DNA from: Gemmatimonadaceae bacterium | Lineage (GTDB): Bacteria > Gemmatimonadota > Gemmatimonadetes > Gemmatimonadales > Gemmatimonadaceae | DNA: 64,000 nt | Assembly (NCBI GenBank): GCA_036844565.1 | Contig: DAIUFP010000006.1 | Coordinates: 93,433-157,432 of the forward strand | Reading direction: 5' to 3' | In this document: positions 29,880 through 63,286 of the stretch, piece by piece | Numbering within the stretch: position 1 is the first letter of the stretch | Layout: each line of letters opens with the position of its first letter | Notes under the pieces: model-generated | What the model was told of the DNA's origin: nothing | The model's database searches: none | Seen by the model: the letters and a program-made list of their open reading frames with translations, nothing else | Program-made: the position numbers and the translations under genes

Positions 29880-30380
29880 CTAGCGGTAATTCCCGAACTG
29901 GAGCTGCACCCCGAAGTCCTTCGACTTGAGCAATGCGATGGCCTCCTGCAGATCGTCGCGCGACGGTCCGGTGATCCGCACCTGTTCTCCCTGGATCGAC
30001 GCCTGCACCTTCTTCAGCTTCGCGTCCTTGATCGCCGCCGCAACTTTCTTCGCGGTCTCGGGATCCAGCTCCATCTTGAGCTTGACGTCGCGCCGCACGG
30101 TGTCGCCAGCGGCCTGCTTGATCTCGCCGATGTCGAGATTCTTCACCGGCACGCCACGCTTGATCAGCTTCGTCTGCACGATGTCGAACAGCGCAGTCAT
30201 CTGGAAATCGCTGTCCGCCACGAGTGCGATCAGGTTCTCCGCGCGTTTGAAGTCGATCGTCGCCTTCGACCCCTTGAAGTCGTAGCGCTGAACGACCTCC
30301 TTCTGCGCTTGGTTGATGGCGTTGTCGACTTCCTGGAGATCAACTCCAGTGGTCACGTCAAAACTGCAAGTTGCGGCCAT
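29880..30380 (-). CDS. yajQ: YajQ-family nucleotide (c-di-GMP) binding protein
   Basis: SFDVTTGVDLQEVDNAINQAQKEVVQRYDFKGSKATIDF... over its full length (166 aa). Confidence 0.9.
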   Translation of the reverse strand: MAATCSFDVTTGVDLQEVDNAINQAQKEVVQRYDFKGSKATIDFKRAENLIALVADSDFQMTALFDIVQTKLIKRGVPVKNLDIGEIKQAAGDTVRRDVKLKMELDPETAKKVAAAIKDAKLKKVQASIQGEQVRITGPSRDDLQEAIALLKSKDFGVQLQFGNYR

Positions 30381-30679
30381 CTGTCGATTGTTTTGCGGTG
30401 GAATATTGCGCGCGGCTGCTATGTCGCGGCTCGTTTTGCACTTATGGCACTGACCTCGCCCCGACCCAGACTAATTGCTGGTGCCGAGCATCCCCAAAGT
30501 TAGGCCTATTTCACCATCTCGGCGTGGATCGCCACGACAACTGCAATGATGCGTGGTTTCATCCGTGCTCTTCTACGCGTATTTGCGGCGACTAGATGGG
30601 GAGAAATGAGCCGCCAGACCATGGCCCGTTTGCCAAGGCTTGGCCTATCGTCTCAGTAGATTCGGTATATATTCGGCTC

Positions 30680-31441
30680 ATGTCGCAGCGCACTGGAATC
30701 GAGTGGACCGATACAACTTGGAATCCGGTCACGGGCTGCACTCAGGTAAGTGACGGCTGTGATAACTGCTACGCCTTGACGCTATCCCACCGACTCCTAA
30801 GCGCGCACTACACTCGCCGGCGCCCCGCTCGTAACACGCCGACGAACCGTCGCGATCCCTTCGCAGTCAGGCTTTGGCCAGAGCGCCTAGGTGAACCTGC
30901 TCACTGGCGCCAACCACGGCGCGTCTTCGTCAACAGCATGGGCGATTTGTTTCATGTCGATGTTCCCGAGACATTCGTTCGCGAAATCTTCGAGACGATG
31001 CTTCATGAAGACCGCCACATCTACCAAGTACTGACAAAGCGCCCCGCACGCCTTGCACGCTTCGTAAAGCGCAACGCCGATTTGTTCGGAGATGCTACCG
31101 TGCCCCCGCACATCTGGGTGGGAACTTCCATCGAGAACTCTGAAACCGCTTTTCGCGCTGACCATCTGCGCAATGTCGCGGCGAGTGTGCGCTTCCTGTC
31201 ATGCGAGCCGCTGCTCGGTCCAGTGCGTCTGAACCTCGACGGACTGCATTGGGTCATCGCTGGCGGCGAAAGCGGTCACCACTACCGTGAACTCGACCTC
31301 GACTGGGTCAGGATGATTCGCGACGACTGTGAGCGTGCAGAAGTCCCGTTCTTTTTCAAGCAGGTGGGCGGGCGGACGCCCAAGGCCGGGGGACGAACCT
31401 TAGACGAGAGAACATGGAGCCAGTATCCCGCTATGCGGTAA
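30680..31441 (+). CDS. DUF5131 / phage Gp37-Gp68 family three-Cys-motif protein
   Basis: MSQRTGIEWTDTTWNPVTGCTQVSDGCDNCYA, SCEPLLGPV and VIAGGESG. The ORF extends to 30596. Confidence 0.85.
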   Translation: MSQRTGIEWTDTTWNPVTGCTQVSDGCDNCYALTLSHRLLSAHYTRRRPARNTPTNRRDPFAVRLWPERLGEPAHWRQPRRVFVNSMGDLFHVDVPETFVREIFETMLHEDRHIYQVLTKRPARLARFVKRNADLFGDATVPPHIWVGTSIENSETAFRADHLRNVAASVRFLSCEPLLGPVRLNLDGLHWVIAGGESGHHYRELDLDWVRMIRDDCERAEVPFFFKQVGGRTPKAGGRTLDERTWSQYPAMR

Positions 31442-32274
31442 GTGATGCTCCGAGGCGAGTGGAACCCGACGGCCTCTACGTTCCGACGATCAAACCGCAC
31501 TCCCTAGACAAGATCCACCTGCATAACCGTTATGCTCGCATAATGGCCACCGCCATGCGAGACAGGTGGGAGAGGCGGGCGTATGTCGGCCTGTACTCCG
31601 GAGCCGGGTACGCGAAGCTCGACAAGACCGAGGAGATCTACGAAACCTCCGCGCTGGCTGTGTTTCGACAGCCGGACCTGTTCACGGATTATGTCTTCGT
31701 AGACCGCAATCCCCTTTGCACGTCCGCGCTCAACTCCCGTATATCCCGCATCTCGCCGACAGCGAACTGCTCCGTCCTCTCGGGGGACGTCAACGCGTCG
31801 ATTGACAAGGTTCTCGCGAAGCTCCCTATGCACTCGCGCACTCAGAAGGTTCTGACCTTCTGCTTCGTCGATCCTTTCGATCTGAAGCTTCAATTCGAGA
31901 CCGTCAGGCTACTTGCGGAACGCCGAGTGGATTTTTTGATCCTCTTGGCACTTGGCTTCGATGCCAGACGCAACATCGTACGCTACTATCGCGATCTCGA
32001 TGACCGCACCATCGGCGACCTGATCGATGATCCGCAGTGGCGAGATGCATACAAGGCGTCCGGAGAGAAGCGGATCGTCCACTTCATGCTTCGGAAGTTC
32101 GATGAACAGATGCGGTCGCTTGGCTATCTCTCGGCGGCGGGGGACGAGCACCCGATCAAGAAGGGCGGCGTGCTGCTATACCACCTCGTCTTCTACAGTC
32201 GCTCCGAGCTGGCGAAGAAATTTTGGCGCGACACCTGTCTGGGAATTACGAAGCAGCCTAGTCTGTTCGACTGA
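31414..32274 (+). CDS. tcmP: Three-Cys-motif partner protein TcmP-like
   Basis: KPHSLDKIHLHNRYARIM...YVGLYSGAGY...YVFVDRNP matches my recollection of TIGR04474. It is adjacent to DUF5131 and overlaps it by 28 nt. Confidence 0.65.
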   Translation: MEPVSRYAVSDAPRRVEPDGLYVPTIKPHSLDKIHLHNRYARIMATAMRDRWERRAYVGLYSGAGYAKLDKTEEIYETSALAVFRQPDLFTDYVFVDRNPLCTSALNSRISRISPTANCSVLSGDVNASIDKVLAKLPMHSRTQKVLTFCFVDPFDLKLQFETVRLLAERRVDFLILLALGFDARRNIVRYYRDLDDRTIGDLIDDPQWRDAYKASGEKRIVHFMLRKFDEQMRSLGYLSAAGDEHPIKKGGVLLYHLVFYSRSELAKKFWRDTCLGITKQPSLFD

Positions 32275-32716: not shown

Positions 32717-33301
32717 TCAGGCCGTGGCTGGTGGATCTTGCTCAAGCACGTGCTGGACGATGCGCCCCAGATGCAGGATGAAATGCACCACCTGCGCCAC
32801 GAGCAAGTGCAATGCATAGACGAACATCGCACCGAACTTCTCGATTTCGCGATACTTGGCTTTATACGTTGAGTCTTGGTGAAACGTCCCCCCATAAAGC
32901 CAGATTTCGAATATCTCACGGGGCCCGACAGTCGTGCCTTCGAAGTCCCCGTGCAATCCAAATTGGTACTGCTTCCCGTTTAGAAAGTCATTATAGGCCT
33001 TTCGCGTCTCGGCCACTGCGACGCGCAGCTCTTCGTCTCCTACCTGGTGCAAGGTGTTGCACACCTTTCCGAAATTGGTGGACTCGTCGTTCATGTAGGC
33101 GAGCCGTACCGACATCGCCAGCGAGCGGAAGGCCTCAGTGTCGAACAGTTCAAAGCTTTGATCAAACTCACCTTCTTCTGAGACGCTTGCATTCATCGAC
33201 AGTCCTTTCCCTTCAGCTACAATCGAAGCCTGCCTGATCTGGTCTACGACGTCAACGAACGCGGTGAGTTGTTCACGGTCGCGATGTGCTAGTTCCGACA
33301 T
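32717..33301 (-). CDS. Hypothetical protein (194 aa), islet cargo
   Basis: Clean ORF with mixed charged and hydrophobic composition. I recognise no family. Confidence 0.55.
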   Translation of the reverse strand: MSELAHRDREQLTAFVDVVDQIRQASIVAEGKGLSMNASVSEEGEFDQSFELFDTEAFRSLAMSVRLAYMNDESTNFGKVCNTLHQVGDEELRVAVAETRKAYNDFLNGKQYQFGLHGDFEGTTVGPREIFEIWLYGGTFHQDSTYKAKYREIEKFGAMFVYALHLLVAQVVHFILHLGRIVQHVLEQDPPATA

Positions 33302-33361
33302 GAGGCAGAGTATCCGACGCCTAGTGCGTGGTTCAGTGACTTCTCAATCCGCCCAAGGGCA

Positions 33362-33476
33362 CCCTTGAAATCGGAGCGTACGGTTGAACGACCTCCTTCT
33401 GTGCTTGGTTGATGGCGTTATCGACTTCCTGGAGGTCGACGCCCGTGGTGACGTCGAATGAAGCGGTGGTAGCCAT
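33362..33476 (-). pseudogene. yajQ: Displaced native 5' stub of yajQ
   Basis: It translates as MATTASFDVTTGVDLQEVDNAINQAQKEVVQ and then loses frame through a ~5-nt insertion relative to 30271-30287. The DFKG remnant is readable in another frame. Confidence 0.8.
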
Positions 33477-49879: not shown

Positions 49880-50050
49880 CACTCTCGACGCGCTGGCGCA
49901 TAGCTGCTGGCGCATCACCTGGCGCGCGCGACGCCAGACTCGCAAGTGCAATGGCCGGAACGTAAACATGAAGGTCAATCTGCTCAGCGAGCGGGCCCGA
50001 AAGCCGACCGCGATACTTCACAATCCCTCCGCCGCAGCACACTTGGGCCG
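49880..50050 (-). pseudogene. comM: Short third comM relic
   Basis: IVKYRGRLSGPLAEQIDLHVYVPAIALASLASRAPGDAPAAMRQRVE matches only the first ~50 aa of the repeated comM 3' unit. Confidence 0.6.
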
Positions 50051-50189
50051 TCCCTGGCTCGATATTGGGCGAGGCTAGGGGTCGGAGCATGCGCGATATT
50101 TCCCTGTCGCCGTATCGAGTATGCGCGCCATCTGCGTCGCTGACTTCGCCCAACTACGGCGGCCGCTCACGATTTGCATGCGCTGTCTC

Positions 50190-50697
50190 TCACGGCCGTG
50201 TCGGGACGGCGTCGCACTGCTCTTCAACCCGTGGGCGATAACCCAGCGCCTCCGCCACGTGATCGGACCCAATCGTGGCGCTCTGCTCCAAATCAGCAAT
50301 GGTTCTCGCCACGCGCAAGACTCGGTGGTACGCGCGCGCCGATAGACGGAGGCGTTCCCCAGCACCGGTAAGCAGACCGCGCGCGGACGACTCAAGCTCG
50401 CCGTGAATCTCCAGCCAGCGTCCCGGTGCGCGTGCGTTGCAGGCGCTTCCGCCGGAGTACCGTGCGCGCTGCCGAACGCGTGCGAGCTGCACGCGTTCGC
50501 GAATGATCGCAGACTCTTCCCCGGTGCAGCACTGCGAGAGTTTCGCCAGTGCAACCGGCGGCACATGAACGTGCAGATCGATGCGATCCGCCATTGGCCC
50601 CGAGAGCCGAGACCTATACTTCACGATCTCGGCTGCCGCGCACACACATGGCCGCGAGGGGTCTCCGAGATACCCACAGATGCAGGGGTGTGATACC
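50190..50697 (-). pseudogene. comM: Displaced comM 3' fragment (copy 2)
   Basis: HPCICGYLGDPSRPCVCAAAEIVKYRSRLSGPMADRIDLHV...HVAEALGYRPRV. I counted 18 differences in about 134 aligned aa against intact comM. Confidence 0.85.
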
Positions 50698-51178
50698 TTT
50701 TTGCGATACCCCTACCCTGACCTTTCCTAAACCCAAGCGCCACTATCCTTTAGCCCTACTTGCACTGGGCGATCACTTGCTGAAAAGAAGGCTCGACTTG
50801 GGGCAAACTCGGAAGTTTGCAGCAAGCTTGATCGGCGTTGATCCGGAGTCCCTGAAGAACTGGGAGGGCGGAAAGACCGAGCCGGCAGTTGGGTTCTACC
50901 CTCGCCTGATCTCCTATCTTGGCTACAATCCGTTGCCGGAGGCAGAGAGCAGAGGCCAGCGAATTCGTAGGAAGCGGGTCAGCCGCGGTATGTCCCGGAA
51001 GGCGGCTGCTGACGCCGCAGGTGTTGACGAAGCGACGATCAAACGAATGGAGGAAGACGTAAAGGGAATGGCCAACCGCGCTGTACGCGCGATTTGTCGG
51101 CTCCTTGATGTCGAGATGTTACGATGCTACGAAGGCCGGCGATCAAAAATGATCGTCGGCCTTTTCTCGTTGACTTGA
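50648..51178 (+). CDS. Double-HTH XRE-family regulator at the island end (copy 2)
   Basis: Near-identical to copy 1 from CDTPTL onward. The natural stop after LDVEM is lost, so the frame reads through the terminator. The start is uncertain. Confidence 0.55.
   Translation: MAARGLRDTHRCRGVIPFCDTPTLTFPKPKRHYPLALLALGDHLLKRRLDLGQTRKFAASLIGVDPESLKNWEGGKTEPAVGFYPRLISYLGYNPLPEAESRGQRIRRKRVSRGMSRKAAADAAGVDEATIKRMEEDVKGMANRAVRAICRLLDVEMLRCYEGRRSKMIVGLFSLT
51134..51170 (+). terminator. Rho-independent terminator after XRE copy 2
   Basis: ggccggcgatc-aaaaat-gatcgtcggcc followed by ttttctcgtt. Confidence 0.6.
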
Positions 51179-51383: not shown

Positions 51384-52457
51384 TCACGGCGACGGCTTGA
51401 ACACCCGGAGTATGGGACGCCCGCTCACATTCTCGAGCGGGAGATATACGAAATGCGTACGAGGATCGACAGCCACGGTGTGCGCGTGCGGGATGCGCAG
51501 TTCACCGACTCCACGCAGCGTGGTGCCGTCGAGCCAGAACGCAGAGAGCGCCCCTGACTCCGCAGCCACGTACAGCCGGCGCCATGTGGCATCCCATGCG
51601 AGCACGTCCGGACCGTCGGGAAGCTTGAGCGTCTGGATGGTCTTCATGCTGCGGAGATCGACGACCTGCAGGACAGCGTTTCCCTCGCTCGTGATGAACG
51701 CAAGCCGTCCCTCCTCGTCGAACGTGAAGCCATGCGGGCCATCGGATCCCGGCAGAGCGTAGCGCTGCACGATCCGTTCGCTCACAGGATCGATTGCGAC
51801 CATCTGGTTCTTCGTCTGCACGGCAACCAGGATGCAGTGCGACACCGAGTCGTACTGCGTGTTGCCGGCCTCGCCGCCAAGCGGGATAGTCGAGCGCTTC
51901 GCGCCCGTCTTCGCGTCGATCACCACGTCCGCGTCGCCTCTCTCATCCGATACAAATACCTTGTCAACCTCGGGCGCGAACGCGATACCGTCCGGAAACA
52001 CGATGTCGCCGACGCGTGAGGTGACCTTGAGCGTCCGGTCGTCGATGATCGCCACTTCGTGCGCGCCGGCGGCTGACACGTACACCTGGTGATGCGAGGG
52101 AACAGCCCGAACGCCGGTGGCGCGCGGCAGATCCATGATCTCGGTGACGACCTTGCTGCTGTCCGCATCGAAGACGATCATACGCCCGGCGTTCATGTGA
52201 TTCATGTAAATCCGGCCGGTCGCGGGGTCGACGCTCTGATAGTCGAACCGGTTGGCTGGTCCGGGGAGCGACACTTCCCGTACGAGTGTGAGCTCTGGCT
52301 TAGGAGCCGATTGCTGCGCGCGTGCCGTCGCGCGCCAGGAGGTGGGCGTCATCGACGCCGCCACGGCATAGCACGCTGGCGCAGCGGATTGTGCCACGGC
52401 GACAAGCGGCAGCAGGCAACAACCGACGATCGATGAGGCAGTGCGGTAGCGCGTCAT
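51384..52457 (-). CDS. YncE-like / YVTN beta-propeller repeat protein, secreted
   Basis: Signal peptide and repeated ...V.V.D..T.KV... blades. Confidence 0.7.
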   Translation of the reverse strand: MTRYRTASSIVGCCLLPLVAVAQSAAPACYAVAASMTPTSWRATARAQQSAPKPELTLVREVSLPGPANRFDYQSVDPATGRIYMNHMNAGRMIVFDADSSKVVTEIMDLPRATGVRAVPSHHQVYVSAAGAHEVAIIDDRTLKVTSRVGDIVFPDGIAFAPEVDKVFVSDERGDADVVIDAKTGAKRSTIPLGGEAGNTQYDSVSHCILVAVQTKNQMVAIDPVSERIVQRYALPGSDGPHGFTFDEEGRLAFITSEGNAVLQVVDLRSMKTIQTLKLPDGPDVLAWDATWRRLYVAAESGALSAFWLDGTTLRGVGELRIPHAHTVAVDPRTHFVYLPLENVSGRPILRVFKPSP

Positions 52458-53107
52458 GGTTCGAGGGGGCTTGCGGTGAGGTCATCAAACAGTGTGTACG
52501 AGTCGGCTTTCGTCCACACGCCGACCTTCCCCGGCGCCGTGAACCGCGAGTCGTGCGCGTCCATCAGCTTCTTTCCGTTGAAATACACGTCGATGTGGTC
52601 GCCTCGCATGTCGGCACGGAGGGAGTGCCAAACGCCAGACGGGACCTTCACAGCGACGCACTTCGCCTCGACTCGACGACCGTTTTGCACGTAATACCAG
52701 CAGACGTTGTCTTCGAGGGCATTCGCTCGTGTGAGGTAGTAGTTGTTCTCGTCCACGTATCGCCAGACGATGCCGCACGCACGATCGACGCGGCCGCCGA
52801 CCGGTTTGCAGCGGACCGAAACGCTGACGTCGCCGAACGACGGCGAGTTCGCCGCCGCAACGGGAAAGCGGTAGTCGGTGCCATCACTGTCCTCCTGCGC
52901 GAGCACATTCGGTCCGCTCGGCGCGTCTGCGACTGCGCGTACCACCCAGTGGCCGGTGCGACCAGATCCGGTGCGACCGAGTGAGAATCCCGGTGGAGCA
53001 GTTCCCGCGGCGGCGCTGTCAAAATTCCAGGTCTTTGGCGCTTGGTCGACGCCAAATGAAAGAGCGGCAACACAAAGCCAGATTGGCGACAGTGGGACGG
53101 ATCTCAT
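52454..53107 (-). CDS. Secreted LamG / DUF1080-like (concanavalin-like) domain protein
   Basis: W.F...G..P.GF..., CGIVWRYVDENNYYLTRANALEDN and GKVGVWTKADSYTLFDDL. Confidence 0.55.
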   Translation of the reverse strand: MRSVPLSPIWLCVAALSFGVDQAPKTWNFDSAAAGTAPPGFSLGRTGSGRTGHWVVRAVADAPSGPNVLAQEDSDGTDYRFPVAAANSPSFGDVSVSVRCKPVGGRVDRACGIVWRYVDENNYYLTRANALEDNVCWYYVQNGRRVEAKCVAVKVPSGVWHSLRADMRGDHIDVYFNGKKLMDAHDSRFTAPGKVGVWTKADSYTLFDDLTASPLEP

Positions 53108-53123
53108 AGCGGCTCTCCGACGC

Positions 53124-54303
53124 TCAAGTGGCGACGACCTTCACGAGAACTCCAACAACTCCTGAGGACAGGATCAACACTGGCTCAGAGATCTTCTTCG
53201 CGAAGAGCACCAAGCAGAGCGCGACTCCAAAGATGCTCCATGTTGCAACATCGATTAGCGCTCTGCGTCCGAGCACAAAGACGGCACCGGCGATTGCGCC
53301 GGTGGCCGCCGCGGTCACACCGTCGATGAAGGCGCGCAGCCGCCGGTTCGCGGCCAGTCGGTGAAACCGCCGCGCAACGAATACGACGACGACGTAAACC
53401 GGGAGAAAGACCCCGATCGCAGCAGCACATGCGCCGAGCGGTCCTGCGACAAGATATCCAATGAACGCCACGCTGATGACGACCGGCCCCGGCGTGATCA
53501 TCGAGACGGCGACCGCGTCAAGGAATTGACGCTCGTTCAACCAACGCATTTCCTGCACGACGCCACCGTGCAGAAATGGCACGATCGCGAGGCCAGAGCC
53601 GAACACGACTGCCCCCGCCTTCGCGAAATATCCGGCGATGTTGAAAACGGTGCGACCTTGCGCCTCGCCATGAACACCGGTCAGAAGCCAGGGAGGCATC
53701 GCGAGCGAAAGGGCTGTCGTGAGACCGAAGCGCGAAGATTCGCGAACGGCAAGCGTGAGGAGGCCGCAAACGGCGATGAGCCACACGATTTCCGCTTGCG
53801 TCAACGCCGTAACAAACGCGTTGATCGCCACGATGGCCCAGAGCAGACGATCGTGGCCGACTGTCTTGCGGATGAGCCGAGAGGCGCTGAAGCCAATGAT
53901 CGCGATCACGGCCGCGCCGATTCCGTAGAAGGCACCGCGCATCCAGGGTAGTCCGCCGAACCGCAGGTATGCAGCGGACAACGCGAGCACCATCACGAAC
54001 GAAGGGCCGATGAATGCGGCACCCACCACCGTTGCGCCTATGAGTCCCGCGCGTACCCAGCCGAGATAGATCGCGAGCTGAGCCGCGAGCGGGCCCCGGG
54101 GCAAGCTGCGCGAGCGCCAGTCCCTCCTTGTACTCGGCGGGGGTGAACCAATGTCGCTCTTCCTGAAGATCGCGGCGCATGCGCTCCACGAGCACGACCG
54201 GACCGCCGAAGCCGACAGTCCCCAACCAGAGGAAGTAATGCAGTAACCTGCGAAGCGTCGCCGCCGTGTGCGGCGCGCCGTCGTCCGCGGTGGAGTCGGC
54301 CAC
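53124..54303 (-). pseudogene. chrA: Chromate transporter ChrA with a +1 frameshift
   Basis: The N-terminal 60 aa (LHYFLWLGTVGFGGPVVLVERMRRD...LALAQLAPGP) are in one frame. The remainder (LAAQLAIYLGWVRAGL...) is in another. The break lies in the ccccggggccc run near 54100-54110. Confidence 0.75.
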
Positions 54304-55385
54304 TACTTGCGCGCCGCGCCGCCGAATGCGCCGTAGAGGACGTCAAAGAGCGCGTTCCCGTCCTCGATGCGATCCTCATCCCTCTCTCGGAGCGCGACGA
54401 TGCCAAGGATCAGTCGCGCAAGACCAGGTGCCTCCTCACGCCGAAATTTGGCGTCCTTACAATCGACGTCATGCACAATCTCCGCAATTTGCCGCAACGC
54501 GCTGTCATCGGGAACGAAGGTCGAGACGAGAATCTCGAAGGTGCAGGATTCGCCAACATGCGTATACTCAGCTTCGAACATATCGAACCGGAGCTCACCA
54601 TCGCGATGTGCATGCCGGACCGGATCGACAAATCGCAATCTCGGGCGCCGATCGACGAACCGACGAATGAGCCACGCGCTCGCAATGCGATCGACGTGCA
54701 CGTCGCGGCGCGTGACCCAGGTCGCTCCTACGACTGGACGAGTCGAGGAGCGCTTCGGCGCATCCTGTTCACGGCGGCGCAACTCGTGCTGAATCACGGA
54801 GAGCATTTCGCCAGTTGCGCTTTGCTCTGACGCGCCAAAGAAATCAATAGCGCTCGCCACCTCGAACCGCCGTCGCAACTTGGCGAGCTCATGCTCCAAT
54901 CTACGAGGCGTTCCGGACGGTGTCGGATCGGACTTCACGCGGCCCCTTTTGCGTTCAGGCTGTCGCGCGATCTTGAGCAGCGAGCGCGCGTCCGCGCCGA
55001 TCACGCGATACTCCTCGTTTCGAGCCGCGTCGAAGCGGGCGCGCACCGCGTCATCGGTCAGACCTTCGCCGACAAGGGATGCGTCTGACACGAAGGCCTC
55101 ACCACCACCCTCCTCGATCTCGCGCACGACCCATTGGAGGTCTTCGAGCGACTCCGCGATCGGTGGGAGCACGTACACGCTGTTCTTGATGGCGACCGCA
55201 CCGATGCGTTGAAGGCGTCGCCCGATCTTGACGCGAAGATAGTCGGGCTTTGGCGGGATCTGGTGAATGAGCAACAACCAGCGCAGCGCAGTAGATGAGT
55301 GCGCCGCCGGTCCGGTTTTCTGTTGAGGCAGCTTTCGGTGCGATCGCTTGCTTGCGACGGGCGAGGTCTTGGCCATGTATATCAC
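54303..55385 (-). CDS. chrB: Chromate resistance protein ChrB
   Basis: WLLLIHQIPPKPDYLRVKIGRRLQRIGAVAIKNSVYVLP and a C-terminal ChrB-C-like domain. It lies next to chrA. Confidence 0.8.
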   Translation of the reverse strand: MIYMAKTSPVASKRSHRKLPQQKTGPAAHSSTALRWLLLIHQIPPKPDYLRVKIGRRLQRIGAVAIKNSVYVLPPIAESLEDLQWVVREIEEGGGEAFVSDASLVGEGLTDDAVRARFDAARNEEYRVIGADARSLLKIARQPERKRGRVKSDPTPSGTPRRLEHELAKLRRRFEVASAIDFFGASEQSATGEMLSVIQHELRRREQDAPKRSSTRPVVGATWVTRRDVHVDRIASAWLIRRFVDRRPRLRFVDPVRHAHRDGELRFDMFEAEYTHVGESCTFEILVSTFVPDDSALRQIAEIVHDVDCKDAKFRREEAPGLARLILGIVALRERDEDRIEDGNALFDVLYGAFGGAARK

Positions 55386-55574
55386 AACTGTATCGTCAGA
55401 CTAAGCCAAGATCAATCCCTGAAACCATGGGCAGAGCCGGGCCATTTCGACCCGTCCATCCGGGGAGCCACTAGACACAACATCACAAGTGAACCATCAT
55501 TCAGGCTTGTCGCAGGGGCAGCGCAGTGCGCCGCTCCAAAGTGTCCCTCAATCATCGACTGCTCGGAGACAACG

Positions 55575-56090
55575 ATGCGCACCATGTCATGGATGGTCCG
55601 AGGCGCCGTATTCGGCGCGCTACTGGTATCCGGCACTCCGGTCCTGGGTCAGGAGTCGGCAAAGGCGCAGACCAAACTTGCAACCGCGCTACGCGGCAAA
55701 CACATCGCGCTGGCAACTGGCATTGAGACGGCGGCGGCCAACGGCAAACCTATTTCGGCGAAGTACGAGTACGAAGGTGGGAAGCTGTCGCTATCGGTGT
55801 ACACCGAAAAGAGCGGACAATTTTCGGAGGTGGTTGTAAACCACCACACCGGCAAGGTAGAGAAGACCGAGAAGATCACTGAAGGCGACGACCTCAAGGC
55901 AGCTCAGTCGCAGAGCGCCGCCGCAGCGCAAGCCAAGTCGTCGCTCGCTTCCGCACTGTCAAAGGCCCTCTCCGCGAACAAGGGATACAGCGGGGTGAGT
56001 GCAACGGCGACACTCAAGAACGGCCAGCCAACCGCCGAGATCACGCTGATCAAGGGATCGGAGTTCAAGATGGTTACGGAACCGTTCTGA
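55575..56090 (+). CDS. Secreted PepSY-domain protein
   Basis: Signal peptide and two PepSY-like units (...GKPISAKYEYEGGKLSLSVYT..., ...ATLKNGQPTAEITLIKG). Confidence 0.6.
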   Translation: MRTMSWMVRGAVFGALLVSGTPVLGQESAKAQTKLATALRGKHIALATGIETAAANGKPISAKYEYEGGKLSLSVYTEKSGQFSEVVVNHHTGKVEKTEKITEGDDLKAAQSQSAAAAQAKSSLASALSKALSANKGYSGVSATATLKNGQPTAEITLIKGSEFKMVTEPF

Positions 56091-56369
56091 AAGGCCACGC
56101 ATGGAAGGCGTGCGCTGCCGCGGTAGGCGTCTTTCTTCCGGTCTACGTCGTTGGCGTGTTTGTCGCGCGGTGGTTTCTTCGACTGGCCAATCGCGATGTC
56201 CACGACGCGCGGTTTACGGCGCCCGGAAGAGTCGGCGTATGGACAAAGGCGGATTCGCATACGCTGTTCGATGATCTCACGGCCGCCCCTCTTAAACCAT
56301 GATCCGCTACTACGTTGTCTCCACGATCGCCCCGTAACTCGTCCGCAGCCCAGTCACTCGAGGTGTACC

Positions 56370-57251
56370 ATGATGTCGATGTCCCGCTACCTTCTCGCCG
56401 CATTGCTGACCGTCGTATCGCCGTGCGCGTCCAACGCGCAGTCCAACCTCGGCGCCGCGTGGGACTCGGTCGGCCGTGTCCTGCAGGCACCGGGCACGCT
56501 CACCGGAGACTACCGTCGCTACAACTTGCCGCGGCGCGACATCACGCTGCACATGGGTGACGTGACCGTGGCGCCGTCGCTGGCGTTGGGCGCCTGGGCC
56601 GGCTTTGGCGGAACGCCCCCGGACGCCATGATGATGGGCGATCTCGTGCTGACCAACGCCGAGCTCAAGCCCGTTCTGGCGGAGTTCGTGCGCCAGCGAC
56701 TCGACGTGACCGCGATCCACAATCATCTCAGCGGGGAAGAGCCGCGAATCACCTACGTCCACTTCCACGGCCAAGGCCGCGCGATCGACCTTGCCACGCG
56801 CCTCGACCATGTCCTCGCCCTCACGGCGACGCCACGCCCAGTCGCCGCCTCCGCGCCGAGCCCAGTGACGATCGACACGGCGGCGGTTTTCCGTGCATTG
56901 GGCGTGTCCGGGAAGGCACAGGGTGGCGTCGCGCAGCTCTCTTTTATCCTAGTGCCGGGGCGCGTGACGATGCACGGGCGCACACTTGTGCCGGCACTCG
57001 GCTACGGCAGCCCGGTCAACGTCCAAATGGTTGACTCGTCGCGCGCCGTCGCAACAGGCGACTTCGCGGTGTTAGGTACAAAGGTCCGCGGCGTGCTCGA
57101 CGCATTGGCGACGCATGGCATCCTCGCCACCGCGCTCCATAGCCACCTGATCGGCGAGCAGCCCTCGCTCTACTACATCCACTTCTGGGCCGATGGCGGA
57201 CTCACCGACCTGCTGCGCGGGCTTCGCGCCGCGATCGACGCCGCGCGCTGA
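56370..57251 (+). CDS. DUF1259 (LppY/LpqO-like) secreted protein
   Basis: Two repeats with GDLVLTNAELKPVLAEFVRQRLDVTAIHNHL and GDFAVLGTKVRGVLDALATHGILATALHSHL. Confidence 0.7.
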   Translation: MMSMSRYLLAALLTVVSPCASNAQSNLGAAWDSVGRVLQAPGTLTGDYRRYNLPRRDITLHMGDVTVAPSLALGAWAGFGGTPPDAMMMGDLVLTNAELKPVLAEFVRQRLDVTAIHNHLSGEEPRITYVHFHGQGRAIDLATRLDHVLALTATPRPVAASAPSPVTIDTAAVFRALGVSGKAQGGVAQLSFILVPGRVTMHGRTLVPALGYGSPVNVQMVDSSRAVATGDFAVLGTKVRGVLDALATHGILATALHSHLIGEQPSLYYIHFWADGGLTDLLRGLRAAIDAAR

Positions 57252-57407
57252 GCCACCTGGCGCGGGGAGATCTTCTACCAGCGCTGACTGAGGTTTGCCC
57301 CTGGCATACGCTTGAGGAGAGTCCATACGTGCCACTTGGGGGCTCGCAGCGTGCAGATGGCATTCTCCACAGACCGGGGGGATCTCGGCGAAATGTCAAA
57401 CACCCGA

Positions 57408-58372
57408 TCACGCCCTCGACGCGCGTGCGCGCGCCACGACATACGATCCGAACACCAGCACACCCGCGAGCGCCTGCGCCACCAAGGTCTCCACCGTGGG
57501 AAACACGGAGAACCAGAGTCCAACCCAGGACGGCGTCCATCGAGAGAGTCCAGGCACCACAGTCGTGGGAATCCAATGCGCAAGCTGCATCTCCTGCGCT
57601 TCTTCCCCAACTATGACGAGCAGCACGACGCCGAGCAGGACGCCCGTGGTGATCAGCATCTTCCTGTATGGCAGCCGGTGTTGGCCCACGAAGGTAAGCA
57701 CGCCGACGATCGCGGTGAGCGCGGCTCCGAGCAATACTCCGCCAAACACGACTCTACCGCCGAGTTGAAGGCGGTAGCTCTGAAGAAAGAGCACTACCTC
57801 GAACCCCTCCCGGTACAAAGAGGTGAACCCTAGCAAGGCGAGCCCCAATGCGACGCGACTACGCACTCGACCGTGGTCGTTCGCGTGAGCAAACGGCGCT
57901 TTCGCCGCGTGTGAAAGCCGATCCAGCCGGTCCAATAGACTTTGTGAAAGAACCAATTCATCACGACCAGCAGGACGATCACGGCGAGCAAGCCGGTTGC
58001 GGCTTGGACCGCCAGCGCCGGGACGCTCTGCCCCAACTCCTCGACCACGCTGACGACGAGAAACCACGTGGCGATCGACGCGACCAATCCCGCGATAGCG
58101 CCGGCTGTGACCGGACGGCGATGCACGCGCTGCTCACCGGTCATGCTCGCCGTGATCGCCGCGAGCACGAGAATGCATTCGAGTCCCTCGCGAAACACGA
58201 GAACGCCGACGTCAACGACTGCGACGCGGCCTCTCGCATGCGTCGCGATGGGATCGGGCGCCCCGTGCGCGGTGAGGCCGGCAAAAATGAGCGCCGCGAT
58301 GACTGCGCCCGCCGCGGCGATCGTTGCTGCGATGATGAGGATACGGACGACCCGCCAGTCGCGTGTTGCCAT
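57408..58372 (-). pseudogene. FTR1/EfeU-family iron permease split by a frameshift
   Basis: The first REGLE motif (VFREGLECILV) is in ORF 57830..58417. The second (YREGFEVVLF) is in ORF 57408..58067, in another frame. The junction is near 57860-57930. Confidence 0.7.
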
Positions 58373-58413
58373 CGTGGCTAGCGGATCAGACGATCCTGGC
58401 GAGGCAGAATGAA

Positions 58414-60618
58414 TCACCAGAACGACGCACGTACTCCGAGATAGAGGCTGCGACCCATCCCGGGTAGAATGCCGGGGCCCGGATACTCAGGGGTGCGCTT
58501 CGTGAAGTATCGCCTATCCGTCAGGTTGTTGATGCCGAAGGTCAGTTGCCGGTCACCGGCGAGCCGAAGCGCGAACGACCAGTCGAGCACCGTGTATGCC
58601 GGGATCAGGCCGCCAGCTGCGTCCTCGGTGGGTTGTACACTGTTGTTGGCGTCGCCGAATGATTCCGACGTTTGGCTCACCTGGAGCGTGTTCGAGAATC
58701 GGCCGACGGCGTACGTCGCGCCGAACCGCGACAGCACACGCGGGGCCCCCTCGACGCGGTTGCCCTTGAACTCGCCAGTCACGTAGCGGGCGTCGACGAA
58801 ACCAAACGACGAGAAGAGATCGAGCGACCCAGCGCGGGTCGGCAATCCGAGGAGCGGGAACGGATCGAGCTCGAGATAGCTCTCTACGCCACGGTGCTCG
58901 CTCGATCCGATGTTGCCGACTTCGACGAACTCACCCGACGCATCGGTTCCCGTACGCGTCCCTATCCGATCGCCGTACCACAGATAGAACGCGCCCACAT
59001 CGAACTTGAATACATCCCCAGCCGTACCGCGCCAACCCAGGTCGGCGTTGCCGCCGCGCGATGAGTGAAGGTCGGGGCTGATACGAGCGATGCTGCCGAA
59101 CGGAGTGAATGACGAGTACAGGATCGGCCGATACGCTTGTGACACGTTCGCGTACAGCTCGGTCGACAAGCCGGTGATGTAGCTTACGCCGACGCCCGCC
59201 AACGGGTAGGCGTAGCTGCGTGGCGTGAACGACGCCGTCGCGTCGCTGTACCCACTGATGGTCGAGCGCACCGATTCCAGCCGTATGCCCGGCACCACGC
59301 TGAGGCGATCGGTCAGGTGAATGAGCTCTTCGGCGAACCCGGCCACGTTCGACGTGCCGAGCCGCAGCGCGGTCTCCCACGTGCCTTCGGTCAGGTTCAG
59401 GTCGAAATTGTCGCCGACGGATCCGGTGCCGCCCTCGAAGCGGCGCGCAGAGACATTGGAGAGCCTGATGCCCGTGGACAGCGTCGCCCGATGCGCATCC
59501 AGCGCGTGGTCGACCCGCAGGCGCGACTCGAGCGTGAGGGTCTTGAACGTTTCGTTTTCGACCTCTCGGGGAATCTGCTGGCCCGTCTCGGGATCGATGA
59601 CGTCAGGCGAGCCCGGGCCGCCGTCTTCGTTTCGCCACACCAGCGCGCGCGAGCCGTCGACATACGACAGTGTGTTCTCGAACCGTACCGAGCGGGAGAA
59701 GTCGTACTGGGCGCGGAGCGCCGCGACATTCCATGGGCTGCTGAGCCAGTTCCTGGAGCGGAACGATGCGCGCGGGTCGGCGACGAATGCGGAATCATCG
59801 AGACCGCCGGCCATGTGAATACGATTGCGGAACACGGTGTACTCGCCGCTGATCGTCAACCGTGACGACGGGCGATATGTCACGCGTCCGAATGCGGCGA
59901 GCTGCCGGAAATCAGAATTCGGACGCCACCCATCCTCACGCCGGCCATGCACGAACCCGTAGTAGGTCCACTTGTCGGTCCCACCGGCGACCGTGTTGAA
60001 CGAGTTGACCAACCCAAAGCTCCCGCCGCTGAGCGCCGACGTGAAGCGAGGCGCCGTGTTCGGTTGACCATCGCGAATGACGTAGTCGATCACGCCGCCG
60101 AACTGCGGACCGAACGCCAGCGACGCGGCACCGCGCACGACGTCGATGCGCTCGAGCGCTTCCGACGGCGGCGTGTAGTACGTCTCGGGATAGCCGAACA
60201 GGTCCGCCGCGATGTTGACACCGTTCTGGCGGACGTTCATCTCCACCGACTGCGTCGGATCGAGCCCGCGGAACGCGACGCCGTTGGACGGGAAACCGGC
60301 GCCCTCGGTCTCCGAGAAGTGCGCGCCGGGAATGCGGCCGAGGATCTGGCGCTCGACATCCTGCGCGACATTTGCGCGGAGCGAATCCATGACGATCACC
60401 TCGGTCTTCTTGCCGGCGAAGATGGCATTCTGCTGAATGGCCGGTAGATGTCCAATGACGTGGAGCGGTCGGCTTGCGGTCACCACGATCGCCGGAAGCG
60501 CCGCGGTGTCGCGCCGGAACGTGGTGTCTGGTTGTTGGGCTGGTGTGAGGCGCGCGCCGATCGCCAGAAACGCGGCGGCGACAGTGGCTGTTGTACGGAT
60601 CAAGTTGCAGTTCGGCAT
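58414..60618 (-). CDS. TonB-dependent receptor
   Basis: Signal peptide, plug (IVVTASRP...GAHFSETEGAGFPSNGVAFRGLD), beta-barrel repeats and C-terminal ...YLGVRASFW. The ORF extends to 61152. Confidence 0.9.
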   Translation of the reverse strand: MPNCNLIRTTATVAAAFLAIGARLTPAQQPDTTFRRDTAALPAIVVTASRPLHVIGHLPAIQQNAIFAGKKTEVIVMDSLRANVAQDVERQILGRIPGAHFSETEGAGFPSNGVAFRGLDPTQSVEMNVRQNGVNIAADLFGYPETYYTPPSEALERIDVVRGAASLAFGPQFGGVIDYVIRDGQPNTAPRFTSALSGGSFGLVNSFNTVAGGTDKWTYYGFVHGRREDGWRPNSDFRQLAAFGRVTYRPSSRLTISGEYTVFRNRIHMAGGLDDSAFVADPRASFRSRNWLSSPWNVAALRAQYDFSRSVRFENTLSYVDGSRALVWRNEDGGPGSPDVIDPETGQQIPREVENETFKTLTLESRLRVDHALDAHRATLSTGIRLSNVSARRFEGGTGSVGDNFDLNLTEGTWETALRLGTSNVAGFAEELIHLTDRLSVVPGIRLESVRSTISGYSDATASFTPRSYAYPLAGVGVSYITGLSTELYANVSQAYRPILYSSFTPFGSIARISPDLHSSRGGNADLGWRGTAGDVFKFDVGAFYLWYGDRIGTRTGTDASGEFVEVGNIGSSEHRGVESYLELDPFPLLGLPTRAGSLDLFSSFGFVDARYVTGEFKGNRVEGAPRVLSRFGATYAVGRFSNTLQVSQTSESFGDANNSVQPTEDAAGGLIPAYTVLDWSFALRLAGDRQLTFGINNLTDRRYFTKRTPEYPGPGILPGMGRSLYLGVRASFW

Positions 60619-60742
60619 GAGATCGACGGGAAGCGCCCTGAACAGGCGAGAAGGCCTTGGGAGCCACGGACAAACATTCCCGCCCAAGGCCCGGTTGGTG
60701 TGCGAATGATGCCCGACCTCCGCCTGCGCCGCACTTCGGCAA

Positions 60743-61561
60743 TTGTACCGAGTCCGGGCCCGGCCTCCAAGCCAATCCCCGACCAATTGTGCGGTGAACA
60801 CCACTTTACGGGTGAATCCCGATAGTATATATCGGATTAACCCTATCGGACCGATCCCGGTCATTGACGACCCTCGAGCCCTCGACGTGGACGACGCAAC
60901 CGACACCAGCGCACGCGAGATCACGTTCACCAGGCCTTCGGGCTTGGCGAACGAGGTCTCAATCCTCGTCGTCGCCGAGCACGCGCTCGTCCGTGCGGGC
61001 CTGCGGGCGGTGCTGGATAGTACCTCTGGGTTAGTGGTCGTGGCCGAGGCAGCGGACATCGGTTCGGCTGCGCGGGTTGCCACGCGCGTTCGTCCCGACG
61101 CGATCTTGCTCGACGCGCCGCCGGCCGACAGCGGCGCGCAATCGGCGCTCATCGCGTTACGGCGCGCCGTTCCGGAGAGCTGCGTGCTGTGTCTTGCGCG
61201 GACGACTCCGCATGGCTTCGGCGAGCCTCAGTGCGTGTCGCCCGAGACCGGCATCGCGGAATTCTGCTCGGCGCTGGGATCGATGCTCGGCGATCGATGT
61301 GGGGCCTGCCTGCTGCGACCGCAATGCCCCGTGCAGAGCATCGCAGTGGCTCTCAGCCGCCGCGAGCGACAGGTCGCGGTGCGCGTCGCACGCGGGATGT
61401 CGAGCAAACAGATCGCCGCGGCGCTCGGGATCAAGCTCCGAACGGTGAACACATACCGCGAAGCGTTGGCGCGCAAGATTGGTGCGTCGTCGCCGGCCGT
61501 GGTGACGCGGTATGTGCTCGAGCACGGGCTGAACTCGCTCGTCGAAGATCTCATTCGGTAA
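60743..61561 (+). CDS. LuxR/NarL-type response regulator with an atypical Cys-rich linker
   Basis: REC-like ILVVAEHALVRAGL...AILLDAPP and the LuxR HTH LSRRERQVAVRVARGMSSKQIAAALGIKLRTVNTYR. The true start is probably internal (GTG 60887 or TTG 60944). Confidence 0.7.
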   Translation: MYRVRARPPSQSPTNCAVNTTLRVNPDSIYRINPIGPIPVIDDPRALDVDDATDTSAREITFTRPSGLANEVSILVVAEHALVRAGLRAVLDSTSGLVVVAEAADIGSAARVATRVRPDAILLDAPPADSGAQSALIALRRAVPESCVLCLARTTPHGFGEPQCVSPETGIAEFCSALGSMLGDRCGACLLRPQCPVQSIAVALSRRERQVAVRVARGMSSKQIAAALGIKLRTVNTYREALARKIGASSPAVVTRYVLEHGLNSLVEDLIR

Positions 61562-61741
61562 GAAGCGTTTGCATCGCATCGGTTGTGTGCCTCCCCCGCA
61601 AACCATTGGCACGCACGTGCGCCGCGAGGCCACTGATAACAGGTAAGGCGCCGAGCGAACGGATGGACCTCTCCGTGTCTCAGCGTGACACGAGATAGGA
61701 GCCGCCAGATTCGCTGCATCCTTGCAGTTGACTGCGATCTG

Positions 61742-63286
61742 TCACGCGCCTGTCCGGCTGCCGCCATCGTGCTCCGCCACTCGCGGGCGATAGCCGAGCG
61801 CCTCAGCTACATGAGCGGACCCAATCGTGTTGCTCTGCTCCAGATCGGCAATGGTTCTCGCTACCCGTAACACTCGGTGATACGCGCGCGCCGATAGATG
61901 TAGGCGTTCTCCAGCGCTGGTGAGCAGCCCACGCGCGAAGGATTCGAGTTCACCGTGCACCTCGAGCCAGCGCCCTGGTGCGCGTGCGTTGCAAGCACCG
62001 TCGTTGGAGTAGCGTGCGCGTTGTCGAGCGCGCGCGAGCTGTACGCGCTCCCGAATGGCCGCTGACCCATCCCCAGTGCAGCGCTGCGAGAGCCTTGCCA
62101 GCGCGACCGGTGGGACGTTGACGTGCAAGTCGATGCGGTCAGCGAGAGGGCCGCTGAGGCGCGCACGATATTTCACGATCTCCGCTGTCGCACAGGTGCA
62201 CGCTTTTGTCGGATCGCCAGCGTGTCCGCAGAGACACGGGTTCATCGCCGCCGCGAGCGCGAATCGCGCCGGGAAGCGCAGCGAAGCCGACGCCCGCGCA
62301 ATCGTGACGTGTCCATCTTCCATCGGCTGCCGGAGCGATTCGAGCACCGAGCGCGGGAACTCCAGCAGTTCATCGAGGAACAGCACCCCGTGATGTGCAA
62401 GACTCACTTCTCCAGGCCGAGGCGACGATCCACCCCCGACGAGACCGGGCGTGGAGACGGAGTGGTGCGGCGCACGAAAGGGGCGCCGAGTCACCGCGCC
62501 CGCGGCCGGATCGAGCATGCCGGCGACCGAGTGAATGGCGGTCACTTCGATCGCTTCGGCATCGGTGAGCGCGGGGAGGATGGTCGGTAGGCGGCGAGCG
62601 AGCATCGTCTTGCCTGCGCCGGGCGGCCCCACGAGGAGCAGCCCATGACTTCCCGCGGCGGCGATCGCGAGCGCGCGTTTCGCACCCTCCTGCCCGGCGA
62701 CGTCCGACAGGTCGAGCAGATCATCCACTCGCGCACGCTCGGCACTCACACGTGGCTCGGGAAGCTTTCCGCGCTTGATCCATATAACGAGCTCTCCAAG
62801 TGTCGACGGCGCAGCGAGGCGCAGCCCACGAACCAATGCCGCCTCTCTCACGTTGGAAGGTGGCAGGATCAAGGTGGTTTCACCGCCACGTGCGCTCGCA
62901 GCCACCTGTCGCGCAATCGAGAGCGCGCCCCGCACCGGGCGAATCGACCCATCGAGTCCGAGCTCGCCCACTGCGACGCAGCGTTCGACCGACTCCGCCG
63001 GGATCACACCCGTGCCGACGAGTACGCCGAGTGCGATGGGCAGATCGAACCCGGTTCCCTCTTTACGTCTATCCGCTGGCGCAAGGTTTACAGTTATTCG
63101 TCGCGGCGGTACCGTGAACCCCGCATTGATCAACGCAGCCCCGACCCGCTCGCGACTTTCCTTCACGGCACTCGCGGCGAGACCGACGATGAACCATTGC
63201 GGGAGGCCGAGCGCGACGTCGACCTCAACGGTGACGTCGTAGGCGTCGATTCCAAGGACCGCGGCGGAGCGAATGGCTGCAAGCAT
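61742..63286 (-). CDS. comM: YifB/ComM-family Mg-chelatase-like AAA+ ATPase (intact)
   Basis: N-terminal Lon-like domain, Walker A GPPGAGKTM, VLFLDEL and the C-terminal Mg_chelatase_C region. Confidence 0.9.
   Translation of the reverse strand: MLAAIRSAAVLGIDAYDVTVEVDVALGLPQWFIVGLAASAVKESRERVGAALINAGFTVPPRRITVNLAPADRRKEGTGFDLPIALGVLVGTGVIPAESVERCVAVGELGLDGSIRPVRGALSIARQVAASARGGETTLILPPSNVREAALVRGLRLAAPSTLGELVIWIKRGKLPEPRVSAERARVDDLLDLSDVAGQEGAKRALAIAAAGSHGLLLVGPPGAGKTMLARRLPTILPALTDAEAIEVTAIHSVAGMLDPAAGAVTRRPFRAPHHSVSTPGLVGGGSSPRPGEVSLAHHGVLFLDELLEFPRSVLESLRQPMEDGHVTIARASASLRFPARFALAAAMNPCLCGHAGDPTKACTCATAEIVKYRARLSGPLADRIDLHVNVPPVALARLSQRCTGDGSAAIRERVQLARARQRARYSNDGACNARAPGRWLEVHGELESFARGLLTSAGERLHLSARAYHRVLRVARTIADLEQSNTIGSAHVAEALGYRPRVAEHDGGSRTGA

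Follow-up and report, generated by a model that had tools for sequence, protein, structure and literature searches.

Recombinase-less cassettes that replace the 3' end of comM, and an unrelated islet at the 5' end of yajQ, in a Gemmatimonadaceae genome

Staphylococcal cassette chromosome (SCC) elements, both SCCmec and the ccr-less pseudo-SCC, are inserted by CcrAB or CcrC into the 3' end of rlmH (orfX) without destroying the gene; they stack in tandem, and many of them lack a recombinase, relying on that of a neighbor. At the opposite end of a gene, SXT/R391 elements in prfC supply a replacement 5' end and promoter, and islands of the dusA/prfC type encode a tyrosine integrase beside the junction. 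Mycobacteriophages such as BPs carry the phage attachment site (attP) inside the repressor coding sequence, a configuration that makes immunity dependent on integration. The comM gene is itself the target of Tn7-like transposons of the AbaR/Tn6022 type in Acinetobacter, which use Tns proteins, generate a 5-bp duplication, and inactivate comM. A large serine recombinase (LSR) is known to act on the same kind of gene: that of Wolbachia phage WO (sr1WO) integrates into a magnesium chelatase gene of the comM/yifB type, and the prophage carries HTH_XRE genes at its 3' end, opposite the recombinase and next to a gene fragment (PMC9203015). Here we describe a 64,000-nucleotide stretch of a Gemmatimonadaceae bacterium (contig DAIUFP010000006.1 of assembly GCA_036844565.1, positions 93,433 to 157,432; hereafter, the window) in which islands without a recombinase gene replace the 3' end of comM and a separate islet replaces the 5' end of yajQ.

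The comM gene of the window is intact, although its last ~165 codons have been replaced by two tandem islands and the remnant of a third (Table 1). The stretch of ~500 nt from codon N349 (motif NPCLCGH) to the end of the gene is repeated, in unchanged orientation, as fragments B and A, and the pairwise BLASTN identities of the three ends are 78.6%, 80.3%, and 79.1% (E = 1e-98 to 0). In the direction of comM, the 5' part of the gene is followed by the new 3' end, 10.5 kb of cargo, the gene XRE_B, the former 3' end, and the stub of a further fragment; past the stub lie a histidine kinase gene, XRE_A, the oldest 3' end, and the chromosome. Each full comM fragment meets, head to head, a gene of ~143 aa with two XRE-type helix-turn-helix (HTH) domains, and at fragment B, codon 349 and the GTG start of XRE_B share 1 nt. 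Fragment B is an open frame of 151 codons whose ratio of nonsynonymous to synonymous divergence (dN/dS) against the other copies is 0.10 to 0.16. The cassette units of the window measure 4.5 to 11 kb, and those of relatives measure 1 to 5 kb.

Recombination genes were sought in all large open reading frames (ORFs) and gap ORFs of the comM and yajQ islands, and no tyrosine or serine recombinase or DDE, HUH, or Tn7-type protein was matched in Pfam; the gaps and large ORFs encode cargo only. Searches by tblastn with LSR cores returned no match in the window, which also contains no tRNA genes and no Rfam families. By self-BLAST of the whole window (G+C content, ~65%; nearest labeled relatives, metagenome-assembled genomes [MAGs] of Gemmatimonadota), there are no diverged direct repeats other than those of comM and yajQ. 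A preliminary description of this DNA had proposed that a 5'-end replacement in yajQ and a 3'-end replacement in comM each left the target gene intact, and the BLASTN repeats and Pfam matches bear this out, as they do the diverged gene ends that the insertions were said to carry (about 93 to 115 nt for yajQ and ~500 nt for comM). The positions 30271 and 62240 given there correspond to the two crossover points, neither island was found to hold a recombinase or transposase gene, and the two insertions are unrelated events, as had been supposed.

Of the cross-genome matches to the distal fragment of the related locus L001, the closest is fragment A, the most distal copy (71% nucleotide identity, versus 61 to 68% for the others; the comM 5' parts are 74% identical), and the distal fragments thus fit being native ends; fragment A is probably the native end of comM, displaced by the first insertion. 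At the XRE_A junction (45655-45670), 13 nt (AAAGGTATCACAC) that occur in XRE_B, L001, and L003 are missing, and the canonical start and the residues IPF are lost with them. The stop codon of XRE_B has been lost, making this protein 19 aa longer than its relatives (51119-51178). Two cargo genes of island B, chrA (53124-54303) and the FTR1 iron permease gene (57408-58417), are each present as two overlapping frames, reflecting either a frameshift or a sequencing error. Short extra relics of the comM 3' end also lie directly downstream of a full comM end, both in L001 (12137-12256) and in the window (49899-50060), and these relics suggest deletions that fused neighboring cassettes, such that cargo accumulates.

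The islands have counterparts in many lineages. We scanned an alignment of the XRE protein against one genome per GTDB species, which yielded 170 relatives, and fetched 79 loci; scans of metagenomes and viral contigs with an alignment of the fused recombinases described below added about 100 further loci (L numbers designate the loci). Metagenome searches yielded 60 close homologues of XRE, and a search for the ComM protein of the window in other contexts turned up the source contig alone. When comM and XRE are mapped onto the fetched loci, there are 55 cases, 2 in the window and 53 in related loci, in which XRE diverges from a comM fragment that directly adjoins its start; the fragment begins at residue 347 to 359 and, in the related loci, extends to the gene end. 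The junction codon in comM is ~349 to 352 (NPCPCG), and the cargo is variable. Hosts span at least 10 phyla, with Gemmatimonadota, Acidobacteriota, Verrucomicrobiota, Nitrospirota, Binatia, Deltaproteobacteria, Elusimicrobia, Ignavibacteria, Eisenbacteria, and BRC1 among them.

None of the eight cassettes that have both ends in view contains a recombinase; they hold cargo only, such as a peptidase S41 gene (L001, 2.4 kb), TetR, NmrA, and GAPDH genes (L048), a ParE toxin pair (L053, 0.8 kb), an MntR-like gene set, or, at the minimum, XRE alone (L059). The larger cargo of L078 includes an IS200-like Y1 transposase that is found in no other cassette and is unrelated to the comM junction. Arrays of 2 to 4 comM fragments are common (L029, L031, L046, L049, L053, L060, L073, and L080). 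A search of open-access text for comM with integrases or serine recombinases returned the phage WO case only, and the widespread family of passenger cassettes to which the islands belong is apparently undescribed. What is new in this family is the long gene end that restores the target, the XRE cap homologous to a recombinase's own tail, the absence of a recombinase from the units, and the spread across phyla.

A candidate source of catalysis is provided by proteins in which the XRE module forms the C terminus of a complete LSR. These LSR-XRE proteins, from Bryobacteraceae and Solibacter loci, are 680 to 730 aa long and contain Resolvase, Recombinase, and Zn_ribbon_recom domains; they have 1311 homologues at E < 1e-20, and among the matches listed, more than 100 of 120 have both parts. 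XRE_B aligns over its full length with the LSR-XRE C terminus (33% identity over 145 aa, E = 1e-22). Other stand-alone XREs are 40 to 61% identical to the fused form, several being as close to it as to stand-alone XREs from other lineages. The best NCBIfam matches of the LSR-XRE proteins are CcrB and CcrC, and homology to the LSR-XRE core is detectable in the WO recombinase (28% identity, E = 4e-33). The free XRE, the only constant gene of the cassette family, is a homologue of the C-terminal DNA-binding module of comM-specific LSR-XRE enzymes.

Elements that encode LSRs occupy the same comM codons as the cassettes in at least 15 other contigs. In 14 loci, the LSR-XRE gene lies 0.3 to 7 kb from a convergent comM 5' part that ends at residue 354 to 373, most often at 354 to 360. 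The left junction (attL) in L133, L137, and L150 reads ...ATGAAYCCGTGCCC/ATTCRTAWGACAAATG (the slash marking the joint), its left side being ...AAYCCGTGCCC, and free attP sites with the same right arm are present in L153 and L160. These attL junctions end at comM codons 351 to 352 (L133, L137, and L150) and 353 (L147); those of the window start at 349. LSRs without an XRE module have a near-perfect palindromic attP, TCAATTGATACATGCACGGG-CA-CCCGTGCAGATATCAATTG, within the last ~25 codons of their gene (L144, L148, L161, and L163), and one such LSR is integrated against a comM 5' part in L147, with a shared 10-nt core of GCACGGGCAC; comparison of L144 with L147 shows that integration replaces the tail of the recombinase gene. 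From these comparisons, it follows that comM codons 349 to 354 are the bacterial attachment site (attB) of a diverse LSR family. A further pattern, GCAC-N3-TGCCC/GTGCGG, is common to the right junction (attR) between an LSR and a comM 3' end in L046, the free attP sites of L153 and L160, and the XRE-comM junction of L069. Relics of LSRs also adjoin comM fragments: N-terminal stubs lie beside truncated comM fragments inside XRE-cassette arrays (L004, L013, and L014), and in the L046 array, a comM fragment is fused with the C-terminal stub of an LSR. The preliminary description had named, as an observation that would refute it, a recombinase gene at the equivalent position in intact copies of these elements in other genomes; with respect to integration by homology alone, the LSRs that use the comM site elsewhere essentially amount to this.

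The position of the stand-alone XRE suggests that the LSR-XRE gene, like the genes of the XRE-less LSRs, contains its own attP and is split upon integration. An LSR-XRE element of type B with an XRE junction at its far end was considered and rejected, as the free attP in L153 has a different arm. Five loci (L093 to L097; e.g., L094, 8193-11420) have an intact LSR-XRE gene and, ~0.8 kb downstream, a displaced copy of its own 3' part, running from about residue 510 to the motif TVGDH and then into unrelated sequence that includes a C-terminal fragment of a tyrosine recombinase; here, the recombinase gene is itself the target of a gene-end replacement. Elsewhere, LSR-XRE genes are broken after the motif IGDHIR or in the first HTH and fused to unrelated sequence, including a DUF2177 membrane protein (L084, 2359-4428 [P0167], and P0115 [L100]), which hints that the GDHIR codons are a second breakpoint hotspot. 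The integrase of Paenibacillus phage Harrison (L188; NC_028746, 27358-29445), an architecture also found in phage Paisley, is an LSR with a C-terminal double HTH that is 35% identical to LSR-XRE over 93% of its length, and these two cultured phages offer a tractable model for the LSR-XRE architecture.

The explanation that we regard as probable for the whole locus is that the comM islands are nonautonomous site-specific cassettes served in trans by an LSR and that the yajQ islet is an unrelated cassette, likely also dependent on a recombinase in trans. Each comM cassette would consist of a replacement comM 3' end, cargo, and the XRE gene, in this order, and would enter by site-specific recombination at comM codons ~349 to 352. 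The incoming cassette would join its own 3' end to the resident 5' part, keeping comM intact, and the previous 3' end would be pushed downstream, into its present place against the XRE start of that cassette. The side of the junction that bears the XRE start would represent the element-type (P) arm. The catalyst would be an LSR whose gene lies in another part of the genome or on an element that is co-resident or visiting; that such an enzyme acts in trans in this genome, and what role the XRE plays, we infer from the shared site and the shared module. Of the two options raised in the preliminary description, the trans-acting recombinase is thus favored, with the LSRs that use the same comM site elsewhere as the candidates for comM. 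Given the 13 nt lost at the XRE_A junction, the lost stop codon of XRE_B, and the two frameshifted cargo genes, the copies in the window may no longer move; they look partly decayed and are possibly inactive. The comM gene appears to be only the target, with nothing to tie the mechanism to the helicase function of ComM.

Among described systems, the SCC elements are the closest functional parallel to the comM islands, being cassettes at the 3' end of a conserved gene that occur in tandem and without a recombinase. Unlike SCC elements, the comM cassettes carry a gene end of ~480 nt and not just a few codons, every one of them is capped by an XRE homologous to the recombinase C-terminal domain, and they are spread over many phyla; moreover, their mobilization in trans is a proposal. 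In locus and in tandem arrangement, they match the class of recombinase-less elements served in trans (pseudo-SCC-like or CIME-like), with att-type sites at the locus of LSR-bearing relatives. With LSR-bearing elements, the islands share both the insertion at LSR attB codons and the terminal XRE gene, and they lack an element-encoded LSR. In target and layout, the closest system is sr1WO, but WO is a complete prophage whose insertion leaves the chelatase gene in two parts, whereas the units of the window lack recombinase and phage genes and restore the gene. The attP within the last ~25 codons of the XRE-less LSR genes resembles the arrangement in phages such as BPs, in which the cut gene is the repressor. 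The AbaR/Tn6022 elements have the same target gene, but the islands of the window have no TnsA/B/C-type domains, show no 5-bp duplication, and leave comM intact.

Nearly all carried comM ends, in the window and in relatives, are open frames, with dN/dS values of 0.08 to 0.21 at synonymous divergences (dS) of 0.8 to 2.9; owing to this purifying selection and the open frames, the ends must have diverged while functional in different lineages and not after a local duplication. The XRE gene is likewise under purifying selection (omega, 0.15 to 0.22), but its dS between the window and L001, L003, or L005 is 0.40 to 0.66, compared with 1.2 to 2.9 for the adjoining comM ends and 0.83 to 1.51 for four chromosomal genes (window versus L001). 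The two XRE copies of the window are as distant from each other as from XREs of other genomes. Together, these values indicate that the XRE module has moved between hosts. A unit made up of an XRE and its adjacent fragment, traveling together and inserting downstream of comM, was rejected on the same values (XRE dS of 0.4 to 0.7 versus fragment dS of 1.2 to 2.9). Identity between the ComM proteins of the window and L001 is 87 to 97% at residues 196 to 346 and falls to 47 to 77% from about residue 350, which fits a swap at the junction but is supportive rather than decisive, as the C-terminal region is intrinsically more variable.

Several observations weigh against cassettes served in trans by an LSR. 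There is no LSR gene within the window, and 190 loci, including the region upstream of the L046 relic, yielded no intact element in which an LSR is accompanied by a replacement comM end. Every LSR-bearing insertion seen leaves comM split and so does not account for the acquisition of gene ends by the cassettes. Under the canonical scheme for LSRs, the boundaries of the cassettes resemble an attB-type site (in the intact gene) paired with one of attR type (the XRE junction), and LSRs are not known to recombine such a pair. The junctions in the window (..TCA CAC CCC TGC ATC TGT GG and ..GCA AAC CCC TGT CCA TGC GG) fit the GCAC-N3-TGCCC pattern only loosely. In addition, within one cassette the history of the XRE module differs from that of the gene end, and a cassette is therefore not a simple, stably co-inherited unit. 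A more specific version, which we offer tentatively and consider rather doubtful, is that the XRE-capped units are cross-phylum satellite cassettes that keep only the detachable DNA-binding module of an LSR whose attachment site lies in its own gene. The free XRE would then either steer a visiting recombinase core to the junction for a reversible swap of the comM 3' end (a recombination of attB-type with attR-type sites not known for these enzymes) or occupy the comM site against disruptive LSR phages; if so, the cassettes would be selfish hitchhikers or an immunity device that benefits the host.

The alternative that survives best, though we think it unlikely, is that the islands represent immobile fossils. 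In this scenario, comM would at one time have been split by an LSR-XRE element, with XRE left beside the 3' part, and imported DNA would later have repaired the gene, removing the recombinase end and leaving cargo, XRE, and the old fragment, either by transformation with one homologous and one illegitimate joint or by deletion within arrays. The decay in the window (the missing 13 nt at the XRE_A junction, the lost XRE_B stop, and the frameshifted chrA and FTR1 genes) would be expected of fossils, LSR relics adjoin comM fragments in L004 and L046, no autonomous element with a gene end was found, and the boundaries resemble a pair of sites that canonical LSRs do not recombine. Fossils do not readily account, however, for arrays of 2 to 4 units in many phyla, each unit with its own XRE and a diverged, open gene end, nor for XRE genes that are under purifying selection and younger than the genes of their hosts. 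Moreover, there are minimal units made up of a gene end and XRE alone (L053 and L059), and the left boundary of the foreign end lies at codon ~350, where homologous repair would not place it.

It is quite improbable that the XRE protein itself performs the exchange, alone or by recruiting a housekeeping recombinase in the way that XafT recruits XerCD for integrative mobile elements exploiting Xer (IMEX), which would make the cassettes autonomous in a new way. XRE alone among the genes recurs in every cassette and is the sole content of minimal units, its start codon lies at the crossover in every case, the dyad layout GGCN-N9-TGCC is shared by the inner ~20 bp of the comM site and those of the cassette junction, and there is a faint NCBIfam match to the VC1465/XafT family (22 bits against a cutoff of 70). 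That match is far under the threshold and reflects generic HTH similarity, however, and the protein consists of two ordinary XRE HTH domains without a catalytic motif. Unlike the dif-like sites of IMEX, the site in the window is a GC-rich stretch of the comM reading frame (CCGTGCCCGTGC). More than 100 proteins have the XRE module in covalent linkage with a complete serine recombinase, which is a simpler source of catalysis.

Least credible is a RecA-dependent single crossover of circular DNA that bears a comM end of ~480 nt or a yajQ end of ~115 nt, without any site-specific recombinase: the preliminary description had raised it as an unusual lifestyle, and it would yield the same gross layout of an intact gene and a displaced copy in islands that lack a recombinase, but the comM copies are 75 to 80% identical, with longest identical runs of 18 to 22 nt and no local identity peak; the ends diverged under purifying selection before they met, and their dS is saturated; 55 junctions from different phyla have one and the same codon as the fragment boundary; the joint in L043 and the joints of comM 5' relics with XRE in Acidobacteriota cannot arise by parallel homologous pairing; and yajQ offers just ~115 nt of homology at 83 to 87% identity, which is a poor RecA substrate. 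The long near-identical homology and variable crossovers of Campbell-type integration are, accordingly, not features of the comM islands. The reading preferred here, cassettes served by a recombinase in trans, removes the need for a new, recombination-independent lifestyle.

If the islands are cassettes served in trans by LSRs, comM serves, in many soil and freshwater phyla that have been little studied, as a conserved landing pad for a diverse family of serine recombinases, as well as for a much larger set of recombinase-less cassettes that shuttle cargo while comM is kept working. The cargo seen includes metal resistance genes, regulators, toxin-antitoxin pairs, and defense genes. An XRE gene head to head with a comM 3' fragment provides annotation with a simple marker of island boundaries, and the LSR-XRE enzymes are candidate integration tools, with a protein-constrained, near-universal bacterial attB and a readable attP.

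Some loci have junctions of other types. In L043 (4200-4480), comM is disrupted, and its residues 1 to 353 continue straight into an XRE of like orientation; in L040 (9531-15199), an intact comM is inverted relative to the junction between XRE and the fragment. The two look like orientation variants of the same recombination. In several acidobacterial arrays, short relics of the comM 5' type precede XRE genes. Three loci (L015 at 1065 and 7972, L020 at 14982 and 19361, and L034 at 3412 and 5949) have several XRE genes, each of which follows a ~45-nt comM-5'-like relic (ARFMLTAT..HPC) in the orientation of the XRE, a junction type that differs from that of the window. On the 994-nt contig P0057, the first ~95 residues of a small serine recombinase of the resolvase/invertase type run straight into the start of an XRE gene, which may be an XRE-capped insertion in a different target gene. 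The "Resolvase" ORFs beside distant XRE homologues in L004 and P0057 were considered as a split recombinase and rejected; that of L004 is a relic of ~40 aa from an LSR N terminus that enters the antisense strand of a truncated comM fragment. In Opitutae MAGs (L004 and kudW-VVE), a block of MerR-B12 regulator, fasciclin, UvdE, and TspO genes, a light- or UV-related cargo, follows the XRE junction in two chromosomal contexts.

The yajQ gene of the window is also intact, and a 3.1-kb islet whose G+C fraction (0.58) is below that of the window replaces its first ~38 codons. The first ~115 nt of yajQ recur at the far end of the islet with the ATG kept (83.5 to 87% DNA identity and 30/33 identical amino acids; E = 1.9e-22 for nucleotides and 1.7e-12 for amino acids), and the region upstream of yajQ (30381-30595) is islet DNA. 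The islet would have inserted at codon ~38, bringing a new promoter and 5' end. Its cargo comprises a DUF5131 gene and a TcmP gene, which together match the PDC-M41 pair of PADLOC, and a gene for a 194-aa protein. Twelve homologues of the last lie in defense islands (with AbiE, MmeI, Mrr, and AAA_15) without yajQ fragments nearby; this protein was considered as an equivalent of the XRE or as a mobility gene and, on account of these neighborhoods, was rejected and assigned to the cargo. From its gene content, the islet would be a defense cassette unrelated to the comM islands, with the PDC-M41 pair as a candidate defense system.

Because the crossover in yajQ coincides with a perfect palindrome, a site-specific recombinase in trans is the likeliest agent, and the sharp, symmetric junction suggests an enzyme of this kind. 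The points against it are that the palindrome could be due to chance (roughly 1% locally) and that a 5-nt indel blurs the exact crossover point; a search for the palindrome elsewhere in the fetched loci gave nothing informative. Like the dusA/prfC islands, the islet sits in the 5' end of a housekeeping gene, and, as with SXT in prfC, the old end is displaced by a new 5' end and promoter. Unlike those islands, it has no Phage_integrase match, and DUF5131 adjoins the restored 5' end. For dusA-specific islands, the integrase gene is described as lying within the 5' end of dusA (PMC4482086).

Table 1. Features of the comM and yajQ loci, in window coordinates
Feature	Coordinates	Strand	Evidence
Intact comM, 514 aa, with ChlI, Mg_chelatase, and Mg_chelatase_C	61742..63286	-	Pfam
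Site in intact comM, ATG AAC CCG TGT CTC TGC GG (M-N-P-C-L-C-G), equivalent to attB of comM-specific serine recombinases elsewhere	62225..62245	-	attL/attP/attR comparison: L133, L137, L150, L153, L160, L144, L147, L046
Replacement comM 3' end from island B, part of the intact gene	61742..62242	-	
Island B cargo: beta-propeller, lectin-like, chrB-chrA, PepSY, DUF1259, FTR1, TonB-dependent receptor, LuxR-type regulator	51384..61561	.	Pfam; source-contig gene calls
XRE_B, terminal gene of island B	50690..51178	+	Pfam; alignment
comM 3' fragment B, former working end brought by island A, displaced by island B	50190..50690	-	
Degenerate comM piece (~90-160 nt, residues ~358-411, 2-nt indel), remnant of a further cassette	49899..50060	-	
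Island A cargo: PAS-histidine kinase-receiver hybrid	47041..49599	-	Pfam
XRE_A, double-HTH terminal gene of island A	45622..46080	+	Pfam HTH_3/HTH_31; alignment
comM 3' fragment A, most distal copy	45175..45660	-	tblastn, query residues 349-497
Intact yajQ, DUF520, 166 aa	29880..30380	-	Pfam PF04461, E = 8e-61
Islet-borne replacement yajQ 5' end, codons 1 to ~38	30266..30380	-	Homology with displaced copy, from ATG to TTCAAGGG, where it stops
DUF5131 (Gp37/Gp68) cargo, next to the restored 5' end	30596..31441	+	Pfam PF07505, E = 7e-88; PADLOC PDC-M41B, E = 2e-88
TcmP (three-Cys-motif partner protein) cargo	31414..32274	+	NCBIfam TIGR04474, 99 bits vs cutoff of 53; PADLOC PDC-M41A
194-aa protein cargo, function unassigned	32717..33301	-	No Pfam, NCBIfam, or PADLOC match
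Perfect palindrome CAAGGG-TG-CCCTTG (6-2-6), candidate crossover site where yajQ homology ends	33354..33367	.	Read from sequence
Displaced original yajQ 5' fragment, ATG kept, 5-nt insertion, pseudogene piece	33362..33476	-	

The window also contains two pairs of diverged inverted repeats of unassigned nature, one at 6269-6340 and 39771-39843 (85% identity over 73 nt) and the other at 53352-53432 and 56108-56188 (80% over 81 nt).

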